Position numbers and translations under genes: made by a program. Source: an uncultured Candidatus Saccharibacteria bacterium (lineage in GTDB: Bacteria; Patescibacteriota; Minisyncoccia; Phycocordibacterales; UBA5272). From it: DNA of 64,000 nt. The DNA lies in contig CAZNZQ010000001.1 of the NCBI GenBank assembly GCA_964577675.1, positions 5,875-69,874 on the forward strand, given 5' to 3'. Position 1 is the first letter of the stretch, and each line of letters opens with the position of its first letter. The notes beneath the pieces were generated by a model. The model did not search any database. It worked only from the letters and a program-made list of their open reading frames with translations, and was not told where the DNA came from. Below, piece by piece: positions 4,588-28,769 of this stretch.

Positions 4588-6279
4588 TTACTTCTTATCT
4601 ACGTGACTCCAAGCAAAATCTCTATCTCCGTGCACCTTCTTCCCTGGGTTGAGGATTCCATCTGGATCAAAAATAGCTTTTGTCTTCTCGAAAAGCTGGA
4701 TGACTTCTGGTGAGAACATTTTAGGTAGATATGATGTTCGTAACAACCCGTCATTGTGCTCTCCAGACATTGAGCCTCTGTACTCAAAAATGAGTGCATA
4801 TACCTCATCCATGAGCTGATGCAAGGCTTCTACTATCCCCTCTTTGTGAATATCAACGAGTGGAATAATATGAAAGTTAGCATCTCCCATGTGACCCGCT
4901 ACTGTATAAATAAGATCTTTGTACTCAGGTTTAGAAAAGATTGCCTCTAATCTTGGAAGAAACTCTGGGAGGTCGCTTGGGTGTACAACAATATCGTCTA
5001 TGGTCGGCGCTGTGCGGAACCCCTGCATGCGTGACCGGAGGAGCGCGAAGCTCTCTCTTCTGAATGTCCAATACTTCTTGGCTTGCTTCTCACTGGTTGT
5101 CTTTTTCATCGGAAGATGAAACTGCTTCATATCTTCATACGCCTTGGTGACTTTTTCATCTACCTCCTCTTCTGTATCTCCGGTGAATTCTGCCATAAGA
5201 ATAATTTTAGGCACCCCACCGGTGAGTACCATTATAAACTCTGGCAAGAACTGAAGTCCGAGGGTGAGCATATTCCCTCCCATGCGAAGAGCGATGTCTT
5301 TGAAGAACTTCATCGCTATCTTAAACGTATGGTCATCGTATGACTCCATTGTCTCTGGTTTATGTTCAAGTAACTTTACTATTATCTCCCCTAAGTGGAC
5401 GGTTGATGGTACGAACATCACCATCATTCTTGAGTGAAGTTTTGGCTTAACCCCCGTAAAGGTAACCGAAGAAACTGCAGCAAGTGTCCCTTGGCTTCCA
5501 GCAATCAGTTTAGAGAGATCGAACACACCAGTTTCTTTATCATAAACATTCCATAGGTAGTACCCGGAGGAATTCTTGGAGACAGTTGGTTTCTCTTTCA
5601 TTATTGTCTCGTAATTAGAGGTAATGAGATCGTACATCTCTTTGTGGATTCTTCCGCCTTCACTCTTTTCTGTCATTTTCTGCGCCAGTTCATCTTCACT
5701 AAAAGCATGAAGTACATCTCTTGCACCACTCGCATAAACAACATCTAGGGCTTGTATGTACTTTTCTGTCTTACCGTAGGTAAGTGTCTTTTCACCCCCA
5801 GAGTTATTGGAAACTATCCCTCCAATGGCTGCGAGCTCACGAGAGGCTGGGTAGCTCGGCATAAGCCAACCTTCTTTTAGTGTCTGCTTTTCAAAGTCGC
5901 GGTAGTAAACACCGGGCTCCGCGGAAGCGTAATCAGGTGTCACCTCAGTGACGTGATTCATATGGCGGGTCGTGTCTACCACGATTGAGGTCGAGAGAGG
6001 TCCTCCCGTCATACATGTTCCAGCAGCACGAAATGCCACACTAACATCTAATCCTTCTTTCTTTTTCTTAGTCACAAAGTCAAGAAGAATACTTATATCT
6101 TGGGCGTCTTTCGGATAAATAACCATCTCTGGTTTAACATAAAAGATGCTTGTGTCTCGTGCAACATGTTCTCTGTCAACATCAAGAAGCGATCCGTCTC
6201 CTTTAATAAGTACTGATAATTCTTTTGCTAATTCTTCGTAGTTGGGAGTTGTCATATAGTACCTTAGAGTGTAGCACAT
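4588..6279 (-). CDS. FAD-linked oxidase (GlcD / D-lactate dehydrogenase-like, FAD_binding_4 + C-terminal oxidase domain)
   Basis: 563 aa with AAIGGIVSNNSGGEKTLTYG typical of FAD_binding_4. The likely true start is MTTPNYEEL at 6255. Confidence 0.65.
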   Translation of the reverse strand: MCYTLRYYMTTPNYEELAKELSVLIKGDGSLLDVDREHVARDTSIFYVKPEMVIYPKDAQDISILLDFVTKKKKEGLDVSVAFRAAGTCMTGGPLSTSIVVDTTRHMNHVTEVTPDYASAEPGVYYRDFEKQTLKEGWLMPSYPASRELAAIGGIVSNNSGGEKTLTYGKTEKYIQALDVVYASGARDVLHAFSEDELAQKMTEKSEGGRIHKEMYDLITSNYETIMKEKPTVSKNSSGYYLWNVYDKETGVFDLSKLIAGSQGTLAAVSSVTFTGVKPKLHSRMMVMFVPSTVHLGEIIVKLLEHKPETMESYDDHTFKIAMKFFKDIALRMGGNMLTLGLQFLPEFIMVLTGGVPKIILMAEFTGDTEEEVDEKVTKAYEDMKQFHLPMKKTTSEKQAKKYWTFRRESFALLRSRMQGFRTAPTIDDIVVHPSDLPEFLPRLEAIFSKPEYKDLIYTVAGHMGDANFHIIPLVDIHKEGIVEALHQLMDEVYALIFEYRGSMSGEHNDGLLRTSYLPKMFSPEVIQLFEKTKAIFDPDGILNPGKKVHGDRDFAWSHVDKK

Positions 6280-17537: not shown

Positions 17538-20057
17538 TTATTCTTCGGTTGTAGTTGCGGTAACCGGCAAGTTGAGGCTGCTGATAGTATCTTTATCTAG
17601 AATACTATCTAGTTCAAACTTTCGCCTAAGAGCTTCTGATAGGCTGCCGTCATCGTCAGAGAATACCTCTCCTGTTTGTTCACTATAAAATGCAAAGTCC
17701 TGCGCTCCAACTATAACTTCCCATCGAACACCGTCAAAGACAACACGGCCTCTTTCTCCAATTGATGTGTCATGTGCCGGAACCTCTCTCACTTGAATAG
17801 ATTTGTCGGTCAAATTAAAAGCATACACTCTTGACCTATCTTCAGAGAGCCAAAATAAGTGCGTATCCTTAATTCCAATCTGCATATTTTTATCTATTGT
17901 AATAGATGTTGAGGATCCAGCTTCTATCTTATACTCCCCTCCATTCTGGAGATCATACAACCACAACTCTTCCTTGCCATCTTTCTCCACCTGAACAATG
18001 ACAGCATTAAGGAGTGCGCCTCTAATTCTTTTAATCAAGTCTTTTGCAAAATCAGGCAAGCGATCCTCTTTCGTTTCTTCTGTCTTATCTTCCTTCTCTT
18101 CTTTTTTTATTTCTTGGACGATTTCGCGAGGAGAAAGTAAGGACCATGATTCTTTCTTCTCCAGCTTAAACCACTTATTCTTCGGTGTAACTGGAATGAT
18201 CACTGTGCTGCTTGTTGCAGTAGAAGTAGCTGTGATATCTGTACTCGCGGCAACTGAGCTTGTAGCTACTTCTGTCGTTGAAGTTGCGGTTACTAACGAG
18301 GATACCTCTTCTGTGGAGGTAGCCAAACTATTAGTTGTTGTCGCTACAGTTGTACTTGCGATATCTAAGGTACTGGTTGCTTGCGACACCTCTTCCTCAA
18401 GATACATATACCATATCTCTTCTTCATTGGTTTCGTTATTGATAATAGTTACTAGTCGCACACCATCAATCATCTCATCGTTAAGTATCGTATCTCTCGT
18501 AAAGTCTGGATGAGTATACTCTAGAGTAGAATCGTAAAGCACTTCTACCTTAACTGCATCGAGATATGTCACAGGCGTCTCACGTTCTAGGCTTTTAACA
18601 GTTACTTTTACTTGTAGCTGAGTCATATCTGCCCAGGTAGACGAGGCAGAAAGCGGGATTTCGAATGTTCTATATTTCATAGAGATCTCGTTGAGTTCAC
18701 CAAGAGAAGTCCAAGTAACTCCATCGAATGTGTACAGTATTTCTAAGAAGTTATTCTGTGACTCTTCTGGCGCTTGAGACAATAGCTCAGATGATGTTGA
18801 AACCATTTCTGTGGTTGATGCTAGACTTGAACTAGCTATAGAGAAGAGGTCGTCTGTGGAGGAAGCCGTTGTTGTGGCTGACAAAGAAACAATACTAGAG
18901 GTAGAGTTCTCCGGTGAAGCTTGTGACGAAGTGGATACAACCAAGGAGAGACCTTCGTCTGCCGTTTGAGTTACAGGCGTAGCTGTTTGTTCCTCTGTTC
19001 CTGGCTCGTCTATCTCTTGCGTCTCACTAGAGATTGAAGTAGTAAAAGATTCTTCGGGTGTAATGGCTACGAGCGGAGCCTCTTCCTCCATAGCCTGAAC
19101 AGGAGTGGCTACCTCCTCACTGCTCTCCTGCGCGAAAACAGTGGTAATAAAAAGTGAACCGATTCCCTGAAGAAGGTCCCGCATAAAAGATGTAGGGGCT
19201 TCAGGTGGTACTGAACTATCTCCTGCGGGCGTGACCTCTGCAGGGATTGACACTTCTTGGGATGCTGGCATGGTTTCTATCACAGGCGGTGGCACTACTA
19301 CCGTGTCTGTAACACTCTCAGACGGTGAGTTGTTAAAAATATTCCCCAGCGTTTCAGTTACCGCTCCTACAATAATCTCCGCGAATGATTGATTATCGTT
19401 TACTGATTGTGTGGTCGAAGCCTCAAGTGCCTCATTGGCAGTTTGAACAGGCGGAGATGAGGAGGCGGATGTTGAAGTTGACACAGTCTCTGTAGAGGAA
19501 GCTGAGAGTAATTCTTCAGAAGTTGAGGATGTTATCAGGGTTGTACTTGCGACAGCATTTATTACCTCAGTTGTTGTAGCTAGTTCACCAATAGTAATTT
19601 CTTCTTTATTAGTTATCGCAAGAGAAACAATTATCTTCTTAGGGACAGTTGCGTCATTAAATGTACCGTCGAAATTACCGCAATAGATATCAGCTGCTGT
19701 ATTCTTGTCTAGAATGGCTGAGTTCTTGTCGTTAAATTGTGAAGGGTCTGCATTAGATGTTGTCTCTCCTTCTTTCTCTGCATTACGAGGGTTGCTCCAA
19801 CCACCTAAACACGTCTCTGGATAAAAAGTTACAATATCAGCCTTACCACGTGGTGAGATAAAGCTGCCAACCACAAGAACAAGGACAAGCGAAGACAGTG
19901 CCATCATCATGTGCTTCTTCTGAAGAGCTCTATCGACTTGCTCTGAATACGAGAAGACCAAGTCATTCAGCGACTTGCTAACATTGTCGATATGAGACCC
20001 GACTTCGGGAAAATTCTTAGAAATGATTCTTGGTTTTCTTAGTTGGAATTTGCCCAT
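17538..20057 (-). CDS. single-pass membrane protein with very long S/T/A/E-rich low-complexity ectodomain
   Basis: 839 aa with an N-terminal TM (MMMALSSLVLVLVVGSF) and several hundred residues of S/T-rich low complexity. It has no recognisable catalytic motifs. Confidence 0.5.
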   Translation of the reverse strand: MGKFQLRKPRIISKNFPEVGSHIDNVSKSLNDLVFSYSEQVDRALQKKHMMMALSSLVLVLVVGSFISPRGKADIVTFYPETCLGGWSNPRNAEKEGETTSNADPSQFNDKNSAILDKNTAADIYCGNFDGTFNDATVPKKIIVSLAITNKEEITIGELATTTEVINAVASTTLITSSTSEELLSASSTETVSTSTSASSSPPVQTANEALEASTTQSVNDNQSFAEIIVGAVTETLGNIFNNSPSESVTDTVVVPPPVIETMPASQEVSIPAEVTPAGDSSVPPEAPTSFMRDLLQGIGSLFITTVFAQESSEEVATPVQAMEEEAPLVAITPEESFTTSISSETQEIDEPGTEEQTATPVTQTADEGLSLVVSTSSQASPENSTSSIVSLSATTTASSTDDLFSIASSSLASTTEMVSTSSELLSQAPEESQNNFLEILYTFDGVTWTSLGELNEISMKYRTFEIPLSASSTWADMTQLQVKVTVKSLERETPVTYLDAVKVEVLYDSTLEYTHPDFTRDTILNDEMIDGVRLVTIINNETNEEEIWYMYLEEEVSQATSTLDIASTTVATTTNSLATSTEEVSSLVTATSTTEVATSSVAASTDITATSTATSSTVIIPVTPKNKWFKLEKKESWSLLSPREIVQEIKKEEKEDKTEETKEDRLPDFAKDLIKRIRGALLNAVIVQVEKDGKEELWLYDLQNGGEYKIEAGSSTSITIDKNMQIGIKDTHLFWLSEDRSRVYAFNLTDKSIQVREVPAHDTSIGERGRVVFDGVRWEVIVGAQDFAFYSEQTGEVFSDDDGSLSEALRRKFELDSILDKDTISSLNLPVTATTTEE

Positions 20058-21005: not shown

Positions 21006-21419
21006 CTATCTCGTTCCAAAGTGGGTATGTTGAACATAGTTGAACTCACCCTTATCTCCACCAACAATTCTTCCATCAATATTTTCCATATAGTACCCTA
21101 AAGTTTTATTTGTAAATAAATCTACAATACTTTTTTGAGTTATTCCCTGACCAACTGATATAGAGCGATACAAACAATCATTCGTATTTTTATCAAAAAT
21201 ATAGTCAGACGATGAGACAATGTCATTAGATGTATTTTGCTTGTTATATGTCTGATCTTCTTTTTCTCTTTTAGATCCTAATTCCAAGCACTGTTTCTGT
21301 AATGATATTTTGAGAGTCCGTTCATTTTGTTCAGGAATATATTTGAGAAGATAATATACAACTGAGACAGCGATAACCAAACATGACAAAGCAACTATAT
21401 GTTGAGTATTTTTATTCAT
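21006..21419 (-). CDS. hypothetical membrane-anchored protein (island)
   Basis: 137 aa with an N-terminal TM helix (IVALSCLVIAVSVVYYLL) and no recognisable domain. Confidence 0.35.
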   Translation of the reverse strand: MNKNTQHIVALSCLVIAVSVVYYLLKYIPEQNERTLKISLQKQCLELGSKREKEDQTYNKQNTSNDIVSSSDYIFDKNTNDCLYRSISVGQGITQKSIVDLFTNKTLGYYMENIDGRIVGGDKGEFNYVQHTHFGTR

Positions 21420-21422
21420 AAG

Positions 21423-21564
21423 TGTGTGATAGGCCTTATAAAGTGTGGTAGCAAAAATCCCACCACGTGGTGAGGTCTTGCGACCTCCATACCCGTTTCC
21501 AGGTACGGCCTATCACAGCAAAATCCACATGATGGGGTTTTTACTGTGATAGGACATTGTTCGC
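21423..21564. promoter_or_regulatory. palindrome-rich divergent control region (operator-like TGTGATAGG repeats)
   Basis: GTGTGATAGGCC at 21423, the inverse GGCCTATCACAG at 21509 and CTGTGATAGG at 21553; the last two form a 10-bp-stem inverted repeat around a 25-nt spacer. A perfect 12-bp palindrome CACCACGTGGTG sits at 21458, with GAGGTCttgcGACCTC next to it. Confidence 0.45.
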
Positions 21565-21710
21565 CATGCCGCTGATTACTCAAATGGTTTAGGCTACTTG
21601 TATTGATTTGTAAGAACATTATACCTCGTTTTTGAGGTCTTTGGTACTATAGCTTACTAATAAAATTTTGTGTAGAGAAATTATTTTATAATTAGTTTGT
21701 ATTTTTTACA

Positions 21711-22461: not shown

Positions 22462-23751
22462 GTGTGTTGTATGGAAAACATAACAGAACCAATAAGATAT
22501 TGCCTCTACGCCCGTAAGTCAAGCGAAGCTGAGGAAAGACAAGCACTTTCAATAGATTCTCAGATAAAAGAGATGCTTTCACTGGCAAGTAGAGACGGGC
22601 TTGAAATTGTAGATATTTACCGAGAATCCCACTCAGCAAAGGATTGTGGACAAAGACCGGTCTATAACCAGCTTTTAACCGATATACGAGCCGGTAAGTT
22701 CAATGGAGTAGTTGTTTGGCATCCAGACAGACTTGCACGTAATGCAGGCGACCTTGGGGTAATTGTAGACCTTTTAGACCAAAAGAAGCTGGTGGAGATA
22801 CGAACACATAGTCAGAGATTTACCAATAATCCAAATGAGAAGTTCTTGCTGATGATTCTAGGGTCACAAGCAAAGCTAGAGAATGATAATAAGAGTATCA
22901 ATGTGAAGCGTGGACTTAAGATGAGGTGTGAGATGGGGTTTTGGCCAAGCGGAGCACCCACTGGATACATCAACTCACCGAATCGAGATGAGAAGGGTGT
23001 GGTCTATATAGATCCTGCGCGCGCGCATGTAATGAAAGATATGTTTGTGAAAGTTGGTCATGGAGGGTGGAGTGGAAGGAAGCTCTATAAATGGCTAAAA
23101 GATATAAAGTTCACCACCAGGTATGGCAAACCTCTTAGCTTAAGTAATATTTATAAAATACTTTCCAATCACTTCTACTATGGAATGTTTGAATACCCAA
23201 AAGGTAGCGGTAAGTGGTATCAAGGTAACTACGAGCCAATCATTTCCAAAGATTTATTTACTGATGTTCAGAACCAGCTACATCAAGAAGTAAGAGTGAA
23301 AGGAAAGAATAAAGAGTTTACATTCACAAAGATGTTTACTTGTGGAGCATGTGGCTCGGGTGTCACTGCGCAAGAGAAGTATAAAAACCTAAAAGACGGA
23401 ACGATTAATAAGTACATCTATTATGGATGTACACGAGCAAAAGATATAAACTGCAAGGAGGGTTATATAGAGGAAAGAGTACTATTAAGTGAGTTGCTGA
23501 AAGTGTTAGATCAAATAGACTTAGATAAATCAGGACTAAAGAAAAAGCTTGAAAAGGAAATTGAGAGGCATAAAGTTTTTCACTCTAAAATCATGGGTAA
23601 AGAAGAAGAAAACTATGAAGTAAAAGACGTAGACATACGCAATTATGCTAAGTATGTCCTAGAGAAAGGATCGGTGTTTGAGAAGAGAGATTTGTTGGGA
23701 ACTTTTAAGAGTGGAGTGAGTCTAAAAGATAAATATATTACGTTAACCTAA
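22462..23751 (+). CDS. large serine recombinase (resolvase/integrase family)
   Basis: The N-terminal resolvase catalytic region contains YARKSS (the Ser nucleophile) and VVWHPDRLAR. A recombinase domain and a C-terminal Cys-rich zinc ribbon (CGACGSG...YYGCTRAKDINC) plus a coiled coil follow. Confidence 0.8.
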   Translation: MCCMENITEPIRYCLYARKSSEAEERQALSIDSQIKEMLSLASRDGLEIVDIYRESHSAKDCGQRPVYNQLLTDIRAGKFNGVVVWHPDRLARNAGDLGVIVDLLDQKKLVEIRTHSQRFTNNPNEKFLLMILGSQAKLENDNKSINVKRGLKMRCEMGFWPSGAPTGYINSPNRDEKGVVYIDPARAHVMKDMFVKVGHGGWSGRKLYKWLKDIKFTTRYGKPLSLSNIYKILSNHFYYGMFEYPKGSGKWYQGNYEPIISKDLFTDVQNQLHQEVRVKGKNKEFTFTKMFTCGACGSGVTAQEKYKNLKDGTINKYIYYGCTRAKDINCKEGYIEERVLLSELLKVLDQIDLDKSGLKKKLEKEIERHKVFHSKIMGKEEENYEVKDVDIRNYAKYVLEKGSVFEKRDLLGTFKSGVSLKDKYITLT

Positions 23752-23757
23752 TTTATT

Positions 23758-24492
23758 TTAAACTATTTCTACCCACGAAGAGTCATAGCCAATGGTTTCT
23801 AGCAATGTGTCAGTATTAAGGGATGGCGGTTTCTTTATGAAAAACTTTAATCGATTTTCAGGGATATTTTCTTTTATTGTAAATTGAGAACCATGTCTTT
23901 GCCAGGTAAACTTATGTTCTTGAGTTTCCTTATCGAAACCTTCTAGGTTTCCATTTTTATTCTTTTTCCAAAAAAATCTATCTTCTGGATACCTAACTGT
24001 TTCGTACTCAAATACACTAAATGGGATTTTCTCATCTTCAAAATCCGTTGGCTTAAGAAGCACAACGGTTCTTATCTCTTTAAATTTATCCCTAAGTCCT
24101 TCTACTCTTCCATTCCAAATTTGAAGGACCTGGGCTCCAATACCATCATCTGTATCAGCAATTGTATCAAAAGAATACTCAGGATTATTTCTACCAGATA
24201 TAAGTCGTACTGAGGTCACAGTATGAGGGCTGCCTGCTTTTACAGTTTTTGCCCCCCAAGCGAAACTCCCTTTAATTACATCATCTAATCCAACATTAGA
24301 AGGTTTCCATTCCGCGTCTATTGCTTTTGCAAAAATTCTTTCCCACTCTGAACCTTCCAGTGCAGGATGTCTACTGGTGGCAAGCATGAAAACTAATTCC
24401 ATACCAAGAATACTCGTAAATGATTTTGGGAAATCATTTAATTGGTATGGTGGCACAGCCTTTTGCACTGTTTTTAGTTTTGGTTCTGACAT
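23758..24492 (-). CDS. putative type II restriction endonuclease (partner of the m5C methyltransferase)
   Basis: 244 aa, sitting 7 nt downstream of and co-directional with the MTase. It has no similarity I can name. The assignment is by genomic context only. Confidence 0.35.
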   Translation of the reverse strand: MSEPKLKTVQKAVPPYQLNDFPKSFTSILGMELVFMLATSRHPALEGSEWERIFAKAIDAEWKPSNVGLDDVIKGSFAWGAKTVKAGSPHTVTSVRLISGRNNPEYSFDTIADTDDGIGAQVLQIWNGRVEGLRDKFKEIRTVVLLKPTDFEDEKIPFSVFEYETVRYPEDRFFWKKNKNGNLEGFDKETQEHKFTWQRHGSQFTIKENIPENRLKFFIKKPPSLNTDTLLETIGYDSSWVEIV

Positions 24493-24498
24493 AATATC

Positions 24499-25491
24499 TT
24501 ATTTTACTCCAATTTTAGATTTTACGCTTCTTTTTTGCGCGGGAATGGGCTTTTTTGACAATGCTTCTATTATTGCACTTGCCACGGCTTCCATTTGAGG
24601 AACTACCACTGCGTTTCCGGCTTGTTTTCGTGCTTGTGAATCAGGCACTATTATTCTGTAATCATCCGGGAACCCTTGTAGTCTAAACATCTCTCTCGGA
24701 GTAAGTCTTCTTTCTCCATTCACAACAAGATAATTATAAGATCCGCTTGCTCTCAGTGCGCAAGAGTAGGACTTCATACTAATGTTACCTGACATATTCT
24801 CATGCCACACAGAAGGATAGGCAGGGGCTGTCTTATTCTGTTCCTTCAGTTTTCTTTGTAACTTTAATTTAAAATAATTACTTAAGAAATGCTTAGAATC
24901 TATTTCTTTATTATCTTCTAAAATGTCTTCAAGCTTCTTAGCTCTTCTCTTTCCTTTGGTGGGAAATTCGAAAGGATGATTATCTCTGAAACCTACTATC
25001 ATTATTCGCTCTCTTTTCTGAGGCACACCAAAATCTAAACCGTTCAAAACCTTGTAGTGAACAAAATAACCTAACTTTTCAAGACTTGAAATTATTGTAT
25101 TAAAGGTTCTACCATGATCATGGGTTGTAAGGTTCTTAACATTCTCAAGGAACACTACTTTAGGTTTTTTATCTTTTATGATTCTTTCCACTTCAAAAAA
25201 CAAAGTTCCCCGTGTATCTGCAAAACCTTTCCTGTTTCCTGCAATACTAAAAGCTTGGCAAGGGAACCCTCCAGTTAAAATGTCATGGTCGGGGATTTCT
25301 TTTGTGGTTATTTTGGTTATATCTCCGTGAGGTTTATCACCAAAGTAGTTTTCATACATTATTTGAGCTGATTCGTCCCATTCAGAACCAAATACGCAAG
25401 TTGCCCCAGCTTTTTCAAAGCCGATTCTAATTCCGCCAATTCCAGCAAATAAATCTATAAAAGTTAATTTCTTCTCTGTATTTTTTTTCAT
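24499..25491 (-). CDS. DNA (cytosine-5)-methyltransferase, M.HhaI-like
   Basis: Motif I FIDLFAGIGG, motif IV GGFPCQAFSIAG, motif VI VVFLENVKN and motif VIII QKRERI. The N-terminal ~190 aa align closely by eye with my recollection of M.HhaI. The start was taken at MKKNTEKK. Confidence 0.85.
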   Translation of the reverse strand: MKKNTEKKLTFIDLFAGIGGIRIGFEKAGATCVFGSEWDESAQIMYENYFGDKPHGDITKITTKEIPDHDILTGGFPCQAFSIAGNRKGFADTRGTLFFEVERIIKDKKPKVVFLENVKNLTTHDHGRTFNTIISSLEKLGYFVHYKVLNGLDFGVPQKRERIMIVGFRDNHPFEFPTKGKRRAKKLEDILEDNKEIDSKHFLSNYFKLKLQRKLKEQNKTAPAYPSVWHENMSGNISMKSYSCALRASGSYNYLVVNGERRLTPREMFRLQGFPDDYRIIVPDSQARKQAGNAVVVPQMEAVASAIIEALSKKPIPAQKRSVKSKIGVK

Positions 25492-25585
25492 TACTCTAAT
25501 AAGTATACACCAAAACGGGTGCCTAAATTTTAGGCTCTCCACAGGTGGAGATTTTGAACAAATTAGAATAGTATTGTTTCAAAAG

Positions 25586-26878
25586 CTATTGAGTCTCCGT
25601 CTTATCTTCTAGCGATTTTAACTCAGAAAACTTAGCTGCCATTGTAGGGTTACCTTTAACAAGCTTCTTAACAGTTAACTCTTCTGCTTTGTCATTAGCT
25701 AGACGCAAGTTGTTCTCTGAAGAGATAAGATCTTTTTTTGTTTTTTCGAGCTGTTTGATGGATTCATCAATGTGATCTATGGCAGTTTTAAACTTTTCAG
25801 ATGCGAGGCGATAATTGCGATTAAAACCATCTCGGAATTCAGTCAAATCATTTTCAAAATTAGTAACATCAATGTTTTGATTTTTAACAATTGCAAGCTC
25901 AGCTTTATACTCAAGTGATTTGAGGGAAGCGTTACGAAGCAAAGTTATTATTGGAATAAAGAATTGTGGGCGAATAACATACATCTTTGAATGACGATAA
26001 GACACGTCAACTATACCTCCATTGTAAAGATCACTCTCCGGCTCAAGTAGTGAAACTAAAACTGCATACTCACATTTCTTTTCATCTCGATCTTTATCAA
26101 GTTCTTTAAGAAAATCCTCATTCTTTTTCTTTGTGGCAGTTTCGTCTCCTTCGTTTTTCATTTCAAACATAATAGAAATGATCTCATTGCCATTCTGATC
26201 AGTTTCTCGATATATATAATCTCCTTTACTGCCAGTTTTAGAATCATTATCTTTTTCAAAATATGCATTTTGAAAAGCTGTAGCACGAAGCTTGTTGAAT
26301 TCGTTTTCACAGTGTTGCTCTAGTGTCTCACCAATCATTTTTGTTGAGAGTTTAAGCTTCATATCTTTACGAAGAGCAATCTCCTCATCTTTCATTTTTA
26401 TGATGTCGTCTTTGGTTTTTAGTTCGCTAGAAAACTTCTCTTTTAGAGATGTCTCGAGTAACTGTTTTTCAACATCTTTACTCTTAAGTTCACCAGCAAG
26501 CTCGTCACGTTCTTTCTCGATTTTATTTACAGCTTCATTAATAGCCAGTTTCTTCTCGGTTTCAGTGGATGCAATTTTTGCTTTTAGTTCAGATATCTCA
26601 AGTTCGCTCTTTGATTGATGTAGAGCTACTTCACGCTCCTTTTCTGCTTTAAGCTTTGCTATTTCTGTATCTTTTTGAGAAAGATCATCTTTTATCTTAT
26701 TTTTAATCTGTTCTTCGGCAAGCTTCACAGCATTCTCTTTATCAGCCTTAAAAAGCCTTTCTCTCTGGAGCAGCTCTTCTTCAAACTGATGATCTCTTAC
26801 TTGCTTGAGAATGTCAGCAAAACCAGCTTCATCAATTTTAAAAGCTTTATGACAGTTAGGGCAGATAATCTCGTTCAT
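25586..26878 (-). CDS. DUF2130-like protein: N-terminal C4 zinc ribbon, long coiled coil, C-terminal RmuC/PD-(D/E)xK-like region
   Basis: CPNCHKAF...; roughly 200 aa of heptad-rich E/K sequence; then GDYIY...[13 protein letters not shown] (a candidate D...ExK nuclease motif). Confidence 0.45.
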
Positions 26879-26951
26879 TGTTATATTCTAACATTTATCA
26901 AGATGTAATCTAAATCACTAAGTAAAATCAAAATATATAGATAGTAATTGT

Positions 26952-27266
26952 TTACGTCCTTTGATATTTTAGTCGTCCATATAAAGCTTCACTGTAATAG
27001 TTAGCAAAATAAAACCATTGACCGACAAAAGCTCCGCAATCAGAACATGTATTGGCTAAATAGGTTTCATTTGCTGTTTTGCTAGTTACTTTTTTAATGA
27101 GAACTCCGTTTTTCTCAGCAAGCTCTATTTCTTTTTGGTTAAATTTCTCAGGCCCATAATCCATATTTCCGTTGTCGTCCCCAATAAGAGCAATGAGCAT
27201 TTCTTTACCACACTGCCAACAAGGTGCTGATATGATCATCATTTTTTCTTGTTGTTTATTATTCAT
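26952..27266 (-). CDS. small zinc-finger protein (two CxxC pairs)
   Basis: 104 aa containing CWQCGKEM...CSDCGAF. Confidence 0.4.
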   Translation of the reverse strand: MNNKQQEKMMIISAPCWQCGKEMLIALIGDDNGNMDYGPEKFNQKEIELAEKNGVLIKKVTSKTANETYLANTCSDCGAFVGQWFYFANYYSEALYGRLKYQRT

Positions 27267-27299: not shown

Positions 27300-27643
27300 C
27301 ATGTCATTTAGATCTACTAAGTATTGACCCGTTTAGGTCCTTCGATACTTATTTACAAAGCTGGGGCGTTGAGACTGTCACTGTGTATAGGTCTAGTACG
27401 AGTCCTAACAGGGTGATGGGTTTTGGTCTAGAAAATTCTAAAACCACCTATTGAAAAATATAGGTCTTTAGGTCCTTCGATACTTATTGCTTCTGCTGGG
27501 GCGTTGAGAATGTCACCGGCTTTAGGTCTGGTACTAAGTGACCCCATTGAGACTAGCTTTTTTATTTTTGTGTCAATAGTTGATCTTAAAAAACTATTGA
27601 AAAATATACGAAGTGTTTAGGTCCTTCGATACTTATTGATTCT
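27300..27643. repeat. three tandem degenerate ~140-bp repeats containing the tRNA-Gln 3' flank sequence
   Basis: TTTAGGTCCTTCGATACTTATT..CTGCTGGGG recurs at 27332, 27467 and 27615. Copies 2 and 3 also share CTATTGAAAAATATA upstream. The third copy runs directly into the real tRNA-Gln 3' end. Confidence 0.7.
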
Positions 27644-27714
27644 GCTGGGGTATAAGGACTCGAACCTCAATTAACGGTGCCAGAAACCGTTGTCCTACCA
27701 TTAGACGATACCCC
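27644..27714 (-). tRNA. tRNA-Gln (anticodon CUG)
   Basis: Reverse complement TGGGGTATCGTCTAATGGTAGGACAACGGTTTCTGGCACCGTTAATTGAGGTTCGAGTCCTTATACCCCAG folds as a cloverleaf. It has a U1-A72 acceptor, anticodon stem ACGGT/ACCGT, loop TTCTGGC and a TTCGAGT T-loop, and closely resembles E. coli tRNA-Gln. CCA is not encoded. Confidence 0.75.
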
Positions 27715-27756
27715 AATTAATATTTTGTGGCTCACTACCTCGTTCCTGCCCTTAAT

Positions 27757-27952
27757 CTCTTATTGATACTTGAGATTATTTTGCTCGAAATCTTGCTAGA
27801 TTTACGAGCCCTCGAAGCCGAGCTTCTCGGCCCAATTGTTATTCCTACTTCTCAAACTTTTATTTGCCTCGACTCGGTTATTGATTCTCGAGATTACTTT
27901 GTTCAAAACTTTGCTAAGCTTTGAACCCTTCGAGGCCGAGCCTCGGCGGCCC
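27757..27952 (+). repeat. two tandem ~100-bp imperfect repeats each ending in a GC-rich palindrome
   Basis: Unit 1 (27757-27845) and unit 2 (27860-27952) are about 75% identical. Each carries GCCGAGCTTCTCGGC or GCCGAGCCTCGGC followed by a T-rich tract. Confidence 0.55.
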
Positions 27953-28238
27953 ATTTTATATTTCTCACTATCTTCCGCTCTTCGGGCCGTTGCGACTATG
28001 CTTCCGGCACTGCGATTTCAAAAGATTGATTACTATCTAAGAAATCGGGAGCCCATTTCCTGCTGACAACATTTTGTCGCTGAACAGCTGTGCAAATTTC
28101 TAAATTTTTGAACTTTGCCACAGAAACGTATCCGAAATTCTACCACAATGTTGGACTTTTTTCTAGGCTGACCTGATGAGGCACTCGATAAGTGAGTCTA
28201 GCTTAAAAAGCAATTATGTAGTATTATGCAGTACTCAA

Positions 28239-28769
28239 ATGCGATGGGTAATTTTTACAGGGACATGGCGTCTCACAAATAAAGAAGTAGAGAACGACGT
28301 ACGAAAGCGGGCTCGTTCTGTTTTCGAGATGGGTGACGGACTTGTAACAGGTGGGGCTACTGGTGTCGACTACTTCGCAATGGATGAATGGCTAAAACTC
28401 GACCCAGAATGCAAGCGTTTGCGTATCTTTATTCCTGCGCGACTTACTCACTTTATTGAAGACTACCGCAAAAACTGGAAACATTCGCCGATAACTGATG
28501 CAGATATTGATAACCTAGAATATATCCTAAAGATAATCCACGAGAGAAACCCTGCCTGCATGTTTGAAGTACGAAAAGAGTCAGGCGATATTACCCAAGG
28601 TGAGTATGACTTACGTCACAATGAAGAAGTAACGTTCTCTGACGAGGTATACGCATTTCAGGTTAACAACAGTACTGGAACTGGAGATACTATTACGAAA
28701 GCTACGGCAGCTGGCCTCCCTATTACTGTTCACGAGAAATATATAATTGAAGAGTCTAAGAAAAATTAG
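28239..28769 (+). CDS. SLOG-superfamily (DprA/LOG/YpsA-like) Rossmann-fold protein
   Basis: VIFTGTWR...LVTGGATGVDYFAMDEW matches the strand-loop GGxxGxD nucleotide-binding signature of SLOG domains. The start was taken at MRWV. Confidence 0.35.
   Translation: MRWVIFTGTWRLTNKEVENDVRKRARSVFEMGDGLVTGGATGVDYFAMDEWLKLDPECKRLRIFIPARLTHFIEDYRKNWKHSPITDADIDNLEYILKIIHERNPACMFEVRKESGDITQGEYDLRHNEEVTFSDEVYAFQVNNSTGTGDTITKATAAGLPITVHEKYIIEESKKN

Follow-up and report, generated by a model that had tools for sequence, protein, structure and literature searches.

Genes and domains of the locus

The stretch of DNA analysed here, 64,000 nucleotides from the genome of an uncultured Candidatus Saccharibacteria bacterium and hereafter referred to as the window, contains a gene for a 430-amino acid (aa) protein of the DUF2130 family next to a gene for a 104-aa protein with two CxxC motifs, hereafter the zinc finger. 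According to the list of open reading frames (ORFs) of the window, both genes (25586..26878 and 26952..27266) are located on the minus strand with a gap of 73 bp, which agrees with the operon orientation described in an earlier prediction for this locus (the original prediction). Between the two genes, a scan for promoters and terminators detected one promoter-like site, which does not exceed chance expectation, and no terminator. The G+C content is 0.34-0.37 across approximately 20-28 kb of the window compared to 0.41-0.46 in the flanks, and this low-GC stretch carries the DUF2130 gene, the zinc-finger gene, restriction-modification (R-M) genes and the gene for a large serine recombinase. Together with the attachment (att)-like repeats described below, these features bear out the proposed location on a mobile island. 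The two genes and the regions of the DUF2130 protein are:

25586..26878, minus strand: DUF2130 (PF09903/COG4487) protein, 430 aa, whole gene (ORF list; Pfam E 3.9e-85)
26831..26878, minus strand: N-terminal single CPxC zinc knuckle, residues 1-16, with C6, P7 and C9 invariant (alignment)
26345..26830, minus strand: long helix/coiled coil, residues 17-178, the length-variable segment (AF2 predicted local distance difference test score, pLDDT, 78-89)
25964..26332, minus strand: predicted PD-(D/E)xK nuclease core, residues 183-305, with E187, D220 and E239-x-K241, and with C190 and C269 near-invariant
25589..25963, minus strand: C-terminal helical region, residues 306-430, with modelled helices 304-333, 339-405 and 411-429 (AF2)
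26952..27266, minus strand: zinc-finger gene, encoding 104 aa with two CxxC motifs and located first after the att-like site (ORF list)

Family membership and nuclease core of the DUF2130 protein

The 430-aa protein matches the Pfam profile DUF2130 with 285.6 bits (E 3.9e-85; gathering cut-off 26.7 bits) over residues 151-408, which correspond to profile positions 3-254 of 255. Judged by this match it is a full and ordinary member of the family, so the original description as DUF2130-like named the right family and understated the relationship. In the order of its domains and in its catalytic residues the window protein does not differ from the other family members, and all family-wide invariant columns of a 68-sequence alignment (CPxC; GE..E; GD; SIMF(E/D)MK; CEYA; RPQ) are kept in it; the only lineage-specific traits of the gene are its island context and its zinc-finger neighbour. 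The motif CPNC is located at residues 6-9, GDYIY at residues 219-223 and the ten-residue string highlighted in the original prediction at residues 232-241. The last ~10 residues are variable, and nucleotide likeness to related loci stops ~30-40 nt ahead of the stop codon (blastn ends at 25616-25629). Searches of the protein against NCBIfam, PADLOC and PHROG returned zero matches.

The family is large and widespread. More than 8000 homologues of the window protein were scored, an NCBI contig of 93 kb encodes a protein 100% identical to it, and 687 DUF2130 clusters at E<1e-30 emerged from 1.84 billion cluster representatives, all of which were scanned. GTDB species genomes contain at least 596 confirmed DUF2130 loci, and those among the GTDB matches listed belong to Patescibacteria, Bacteroidota, Pseudomonadota, Coriobacteriia, Lachnospiraceae and Sulfurovum.

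In the 68-sequence alignment, which comprises homologues at 43-60% identity, E187, D220 and K241 are each present in every sequence, and position 239 is occupied by glutamate (61 sequences) or aspartate (7 sequences). The acidic and lysine residues of the predicted triad have therefore stood up to comparison across homologues. The resulting ED(E/D)K pattern is kept in ~147 of 151 cluster representatives and occurs together with all four of the cysteines discussed below in at least 131 of them. In the modelled structure E187 is located on helix 1, D220 at the beginning of strand 2 and E239-x-K241 at the end of strand 3. The residue pattern indicates that the D...ExK triad is real, canonical and conserved across the DUF2130 family, as the original prediction had supposed. 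However, the motif is not cryptic, because the assignment to the PD-(D/E)xK superfamily has been published: a catalogue of PD-(D/E)XK families from 2012 lists DUF2130 as entry 109, adopted from the clan defined by Pfam itself, with the function "unknown" (PMC3424549). The nuclease assignment is hence not new.

A model of the domain only (residues 172-345), which was built with a more diverse alignment, reached a pLDDT of 79.4 and a predicted template modelling (pTM) score of 0.74, and shows the alpha-beta-beta-beta-alpha-beta topology that defines the PD-(D/E)xK core. The modelled domain accordingly has a restriction-endonuclease-like fold. The top Foldseek matches of the model in the PDB, which were not significant, are restriction enzymes, and PDB sequence searches with the protein and with the family profile returned coiled-coil noise only. 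The nuclease domains of Can2/Card1 (DUF1887), McrC and the type II enzymes BstEII, NgoMIV and EcoRI share 6-18% sequence identity with DUF2130, at Foldseek E-values that are not significant. Unlike these proteins, DUF2130 has no CARF domain, AAA+ partner or DNA-recognition domain and instead combines a zinc knuckle with long coiled coils. We infer that DUF2130 proteins are metal-dependent nucleases and that DNA is their substrate.

Zinc knuckle, coiled coil and conserved cysteines

The N-terminus is modelled as a beta-hairpin with strands at residues 2-5 and 12-15 (AF2). It had been described as a zinc ribbon, and the CPNC motif is indeed found at residues 6-9, whereas a classical zinc ribbon contains two CxxC/CxxH knuckles and a single CPxC is conserved at the N-terminus here. 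In line with a half ribbon, the Pfam family Zn_ribbon_4 gave sub-threshold matches to the first half of its profile in 61 of the 68 family members, and the window protein aligned with positions 3-17 of 36 only, with 17.4 bits compared to a cut-off of 30.3. The knuckle is followed by a stretch of ~160 aa (residues 17-178) that is modelled as one long helix, with further helices at the C-terminus of the protein; the long helix had been foreseen, at a length of ~200 aa of heptads that is too long.

Insertions of other family members relative to the window protein cluster at residues 80-90, with a hot spot after residue ~88, the midpoint of this helix. Length variation at such a position fits an antiparallel coiled-coil hairpin, and the pattern thus suggests that the helix may fold back on itself. 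The four near-invariant cysteines of the protein are divided between the N-terminal knuckle (C6 and C9) and the nuclease core, where C190, three residues past E187, and C269, with which strand 4 begins, each occur in 67 of the 68 sequences. Since a hairpin would return the knuckle to the nuclease domain, the four cysteines might form one metal site that clasps the folded-back coiled coil. A single CPxC on a long coiled coil with length variation at its midpoint resembles Rad50/SbcC. However, the CPxC of DUF2130 is located at the N-terminus and not at the apex of the coiled coil, and there is no ABC ATPase head. The near-invariance of C190 and C269 within the nuclease domain moreover suggests an intramolecular site, unlike the zinc hook of Rad50.

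Organisation of the island

The zinc-finger gene is followed, on the side of its start codon, by a series of repeats that leads to a tRNA-Gln gene, and the DUF2130 gene is followed on its other side by an R-M cassette and a convergent recombinase gene:

27644..27715, minus strand: tRNA-Gln(CTG) (ARAGORN; Rfam tRNA, 59.1 bits)
27616-27683: third copy of the att-like repeat, which is the tRNA-Gln 3' end and its downstream flank
27467..27534, minus strand: second copy of the att-like repeat
27332..27399, minus strand: innermost att-like repeat, consisting of a tRNA-Gln 3'-end-like sequence and AATAAGTATCGAAGGACCTAAA
24499..25542, minus strand: C5 cytosine DNA methyltransferase of a type II R-M cassette (PF00145, E 1.2e-100; TIGR00675; PADLOC MTase_II)
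23758..24492, minus strand: 244-aa ORF, presumed restriction endonuclease of the cassette, starting 6 bp past the end of the methyltransferase gene
22462..23751, plus strand: large serine recombinase, convergent with DUF2130 (Resolvase, Recombinase and Zn_ribbon_recom domains)

The 3' end of the tRNA-Gln gene and ~35 nt of its flank are thus present in three copies, spaced ~135-150 nt apart from the tRNA to the zinc-finger gene. These copies look like stacked remnants of att sites left by repeated integration. At its opposite end, near 20 kb, the low-GC region yielded no matching repeat. Nucleotide likeness (blastn) to three related loci (L001, L094 and L097) starts at the innermost repeat (27353-27355). 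In L094 and L097 there is no tRNA at that place and tRNA-3'-end-like fragments are found at the same position.

Comparison with these relatives delimits the core of the element. L094 encodes a 93%-identical recombinase directly after DUF2130, 21 bp apart (L094 10590-10612), with type I R-M genes past the recombinase, and the minimal element there holds little else. In L001 and L097/98, only the C-terminal ~100 codons of the recombinase remain. The order shared by the window and L094, together with the remnants in L001 and L097, indicates a conserved module of att site, zinc finger, DUF2130 and recombinase, in which the large serine recombinase is the integrase of the island. The methyltransferase gene and the 244-aa ORF form a 1.8-kb cassette (23752-25585) which exactly fills the spacer between the convergent DUF2130 and recombinase genes. 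It is absent in L094 and has been gained or lost as one unit. The 244-aa ORF gave no match to any protein family, to the PDB or to plasmid sequences and is presumed to encode the restriction endonuclease of this cassette. While the original prediction was right in that R-M genes adjoin DUF2130, this adjacency is incidental, because L094 has the same module without the cassette. Further mobility is indicated by the locus L008, in which nucleotide likeness is limited to the DUF2130 gene and starts 17 nt ahead of the start codon; DUF2130 therefore also moves as a single-gene cassette.

At the far end of the island, an 839-aa Ser/Thr-rich protein is encoded (17538-20057, minus strand). Its homologue in the related locus L002 (2721-5291, minus strand) adjoins the tRNA-Gln side of the module (L002 tRNA at 5833-5904, plus strand). 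Since the homologues lie on opposite sides, the DNA between the tRNA and the end of the island has been inverted or otherwise rearranged between the window and L002.

Distribution and evolution of the zinc finger

The 104-aa protein contains the motifs CWQC (residues 16-19) and CSDC (residues 74-77). Searches against Pfam, NCBIfam, PADLOC, PHROG and the PDB returned no match, and even at E<=10 Pfam gave nothing past generic zinc-ribbon noise. Only five homologue clusters were found among 5.8 billion proteins, and the protein is lineage-restricted.

The original prediction combined the zinc finger and DUF2130 into an effector pair for defence or against mobile genetic elements. In a dedicated two-gene system of this kind, the small protein might act as a sensor, regulator or antitoxin-like subunit. 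Several observations speak for such a link. The zinc finger is encoded upstream of DUF2130, on the same strand and at a distance of 70-75 bp, in the window and in its close relatives (L001, L002, L094-96 and L097-98), while the flanks differ each time. Purifying selection acts on both genes (dN/dS, the ratio of non-synonymous to synonymous divergence, of 0.02-0.10 across the two and of 0.06-0.10 for the zinc finger), and both are intact where the recombinase has been reduced to a remnant. However, this arrangement is confined to the close relatives. The five zinc-finger clusters stand against thousands of DUF2130 homologues, tBLASTn detected the zinc finger in none of 80 species-level DUF2130 loci of other species, and it is likewise absent from L008, whose 90%-identical DUF2130 is the closest relative with a visible context. 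Nor is any other neighbour conserved family-wide: in an all-against-all clustering of 1096 neighbouring ORFs, the commonest neighbour of DUF2130, an ABC ATPase, was found in 8 of 78 loci.

Conversely, the zinc finger occurs ahead of other genes. A 59%-identical copy precedes genes for a MazG-like protein, an HNH protein, an SDH-type protease and then a serine recombinase (L003-L006; zinc finger at ~470-780), and a 66-73%-identical copy precedes an hsdM-hsdS-hsdR type I operon (L007; zinc finger at 1273-1560). In L007 the gene as called lacks part of the N-terminus, and its first CxxC is located upstream of the annotated start. The two genes also differ in their history. In the same pairs of loci, the zinc finger has accumulated far less synonymous divergence (dS 0.36-0.85) than DUF2130 (dS 1.8-2.5), and the nearest relatives disagree, the zinc finger of the window being closest to that of L097 and its DUF2130 to that of L008, which has no zinc finger. 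Divergence and discordant relatives together indicate that the two genes have been reshuffled relative to each other. We therefore regard the dedicated two-gene system as unlikely. The comparisons argue that the zinc finger is a neighbour in this lineage only and not a dedicated subunit of DUF2130, and that it has the character of a leader or backbone gene, specific to the lineage, ahead of interchangeable cargo, a cargo-slot view which follows from the same leader preceding MazG and HNH genes or hsdMSR elsewhere. The zinc finger could serve as a regulator of the cargo or as a directionality factor of the recombinase.

Genomic distribution of DUF2130 and association with defence genes

DUF2130 genes are patchily distributed and frequently mobile. 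Among 5426 complete E. coli genomes, three contain DUF2130, in all cases within an island and next to R-M genes of type I or type III. The gene was furthermore found on 69 plasmids, mobilisable and conjugative ones among them, of which 13 are Lactococcus plasmids including dairy plasmids; on the Lactococcus plasmid pC42 it is located beside an AAA ATPase gene and an Eco57I/BsuBI R-M pair. None of 50,697 phage genomes and just 22 of 2.9 million viral contigs contained DUF2130.

The immediate neighbours are heterogeneous, with 154 Pfam families among 141 neighbours. They include AAA_21 (8), AAA_15 (4), ResIII/HsdR (3), DUF4011 with an MTES helicase (2), GmrSD (2) and OLD Toprim (2), and PADLOC matches among them include mad3, AriA, AbiLi, PtuA, Old, LmuB and GajA. 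Genes six to eight positions away are mostly housekeeping genes. Using a seed set of R-M and defence families, we obtained matches for 8.0% of the genes at positions ±1-2, 3.0% at ±3-5 and 2.3% at six or more positions (Fisher p=0.001 for 8.0% versus 2.3%), a comparison that is weakened as support for a defence role in that some of the seeds came from the very loci under comparison and the distal control lacks independence from defence islands. Proximal and distal counts of Pfam and PADLOC matches point in the same direction. A seed match was present within ±2 genes in 15 of 78 loci and within 10 kb in 23 of 78, both of which are lower bounds owing to the imperfect seed set. The defence context put forward in the original prediction hence holds in part: the local excess of R-M and defence genes is moderate, seed matches concern a minority of the loci, and the association overall is mixed but positive.

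In L018, a Bergeyella metagenome-assembled genome (MAG), DUF2130 is located directly downstream of cas2 and upstream of a gene for a 1936-aa DUF4011/MTES/DUF3320 helicase (L018 9612-9950 and 11297-17107). The same giant DUF4011 helicase adjoins DUF2130 in L024, L036 and L071.

This distribution also bears on the question whether DUF2130 might be a housekeeping nuclease of DNA repair or recombination, analogous to RmuC and without a role in defence, whose presence on the island would be incidental. Very high conservation across phyla, strong purifying selection and ordinary metabolic neighbours in many loci would all fit such a function, and so would the architecture, as RmuC (PF02646) likewise consists of a coiled-coil N-terminal region followed by a PD-(D/E)xK domain and is similarly poorly defined in function. 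The original prediction had likened the triad to that of RmuC-like proteins. A specific kinship with RmuC was nevertheless rejected. None of the 68 family members gave a Pfam RmuC match at E<=1, that is, not even below threshold, and hhalign of the DUF2130 family profile against E. coli RmuC returned a probability of 0.14 (E 0.41), with a sole aligned stretch that places GDYIF on the PDVIV of RmuC. Beyond the superfamily level there is no detectable sequence relationship. In addition, a CPxC knuckle starts the DUF2130 protein, and the two genes differ in their status in E. coli: DUF2130 belongs to the accessory genes and is rare, whereas K-12 carries rmuC on its chromosome. A purely housekeeping role is also difficult to reconcile with the restriction of the E. 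coli copies to islands, the occurrence on mobilisable and conjugative plasmids, the single-gene cassette with breakpoints at the gene ends and the local excess of defence genes, and we consider it improbable.

Cassettes of DUF2130 with OLD-family nucleases

In several other lineages DUF2130 is part of a two-gene cassette. A gene for a 626-aa OLD-family ATP-dependent nuclease is followed at a distance of 2-5 bp by DUF2130 in E. coli H5/H6, E. coli ET245, a Citrobacter plasmid and L074:

L100 10118-13410: OLD+DUF2130 cassette of E. coli H6
L101 10118-13413: OLD+DUF2130 cassette of E. coli ET245
L093 5118-8410: OLD+DUF2130 cassette of the Citrobacter plasmid
L074 8118-11386: OLD+DUF2130 cassette of a MAG

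Nucleotide likeness between these loci (72-75% identity) spans exactly the two genes. The flanks are unrelated and represent three contexts, namely a type III-like system, a type I R-M system and a MAG. An Enterobacter plasmid gave an identical DUF2130 match in a comparison of the DUF2130 gene alone, and more distant AAA_15/OLD-like genes are located immediately upstream of DUF2130 in L055 and L062. The arrangement resembles known OLD systems, in which an OLD enzyme is encoded with a partner gene. A 2023 review distinguishes four classes, consisting of a single gene (class 1), Gabija with a UvrD-like helicase (class 2), a retron (class 3) and PARIS (class 4), and a DUF2130 partner is not among them (PMC10568477). 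This likeness concerns the cassettes elsewhere and not the window, where no homologue of OLD or AAA_15 was found anywhere and where the gene upstream of DUF2130 is the zinc finger. The DUF2130 gene of the window therefore lies outside such a cassette, and the link to OLD bears on the role of the family.

Proposed function

Taken together, we propose with a probability of about 0.55 that the DUF2130 gene of the window is a stand-alone, DNA-cleaving cargo gene on a mini-island which targets tRNA-Gln by means of a serine recombinase, with the zinc finger as a leader gene of the island and not as a subunit. The family membership, the conserved catalytic residues, the fold, the island anatomy and the local excess of defence genes are established parts of this picture, from which we infer the role in defence. 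According to this proposal, DUF2130 would be an enzyme composed of a CPxC knuckle, a coiled coil of ~160 residues, a PD-(D/E)xK core and C-terminal helices, and would be carried as cargo of a small integrative island in a genome of the Patescibacteria. The backbone of the island would comprise the att site at the 3' end of tRNA-Gln, the 104-aa zinc-finger gene, DUF2130 and the convergent large serine recombinase. The enzyme would cleave DNA as an effector in defence or in conflicts between mobile elements, acting alone here and together with the neighbouring OLD-family ATPase-nuclease in some other lineages.

A number of observations weigh against this proposal. With regard to the structure, the full-length AF2 model, which was built on 52 close homologues, is poor (pLDDT 66, and below 50 in the nuclease domain), and Foldseek searches of the model against the PDB and BFVD returned nothing at E<=0.001. 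Neither the 430-aa nor the 104-aa protein matches a component hidden Markov model of PADLOC-DB v2.0.0 at E<=0.01, and the literature searchable under DUF2130, COG4487 and PF09903 holds no functional study or assay of any DUF2130 protein. No gene of the seed families is present within 10 kb in 55 of 78 species-level loci, a number that, owing to the small seed set, overstates the loci without defence genes. The surroundings of several loci resemble housekeeping contexts, and at 55-75% identity across phyla DUF2130 is unusually conserved for a defence gene. Finally, DUF2130 and the zinc finger are neighbours across at least five different flanking contexts, and both have outlasted the decay of the recombinase; a functional link of the zinc finger to DUF2130 that is specific to this lineage is possible.

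The least probable of the alternatives is that DUF2130 and the zinc finger serve the island itself, as an addiction or stabilisation module or as accessory factors of integration and excision by the recombinase: the three genes do form the conserved core of the window and L094 and the remnants in L001 and L097, with little else in the minimal L094 element, but among the 80 loci of other species a serine recombinase match was found in L019 only, DUF2130 stays intact after the recombinase has decayed, and it also occurs in wholly different cassettes, with OLD or at the end of type I R-M operons.

If the cargo-gene proposal is extended to the whole family, it may be speculated, as a tentative and rather doubtful generalisation, that DUF2130 is a widespread nuclease against mobile elements with a fold-back arm similar to that of SMC/Rad50, held by a clasp of four cysteines and one metal, which acts alone or with an OLD enzyme as a new class of OLD partner, and that the zinc finger is a portable leader or regulator ahead of interchangeable defence cargo on serine-recombinase mini-islands which target tRNA-Gln in the Patescibacteria.

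By itself, the window gene represents a further copy of a domain that has been catalogued without an assigned function. At 50% identity the family still forms hundreds of clusters or more, spread over many phyla, and its movement in the manner of cassettes, the excess of defence and R-M genes nearby and the OLD+DUF2130 module point to a role in mobile-element conflicts. Such a role is directly testable, as close homologues are present in culturable hosts (E. coli H6, with 58% identity, and ET245; Lactococcus with pC42). The comparison also corrects the view of a two-gene system defined by the zinc-finger neighbour. The finding is modest as stated and would be weightier if DUF2130 is truly a defence nuclease or a new partner of OLD enzymes.

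Further observations in the window

A LOOT RNA (Rfam RF03000) was detected at 21472-21595 on the minus strand (83.5 bits, E 2.9e-14, full length), within the low-GC region and adjoining a 137-aa ORF (21006-21419). The searchable literature contains next to nothing on the LOOT motif. Just past the tRNA, a 197-aa ORF (28176-28769, plus strand) shows weak PHROG matches to a family of GTP-binding domains (phrog_289, E 2.5e-6) and to a DprA-like family, and no Pfam match. Two direct repeats of ~95 nt with ~68% identity (27745-27840 and 27865-27960, minus strand) are located just upstream of tRNA-Gln, 120 nt apart, and each of them contains a short GC-rich hairpin (GCCGAG..CTCGGC).

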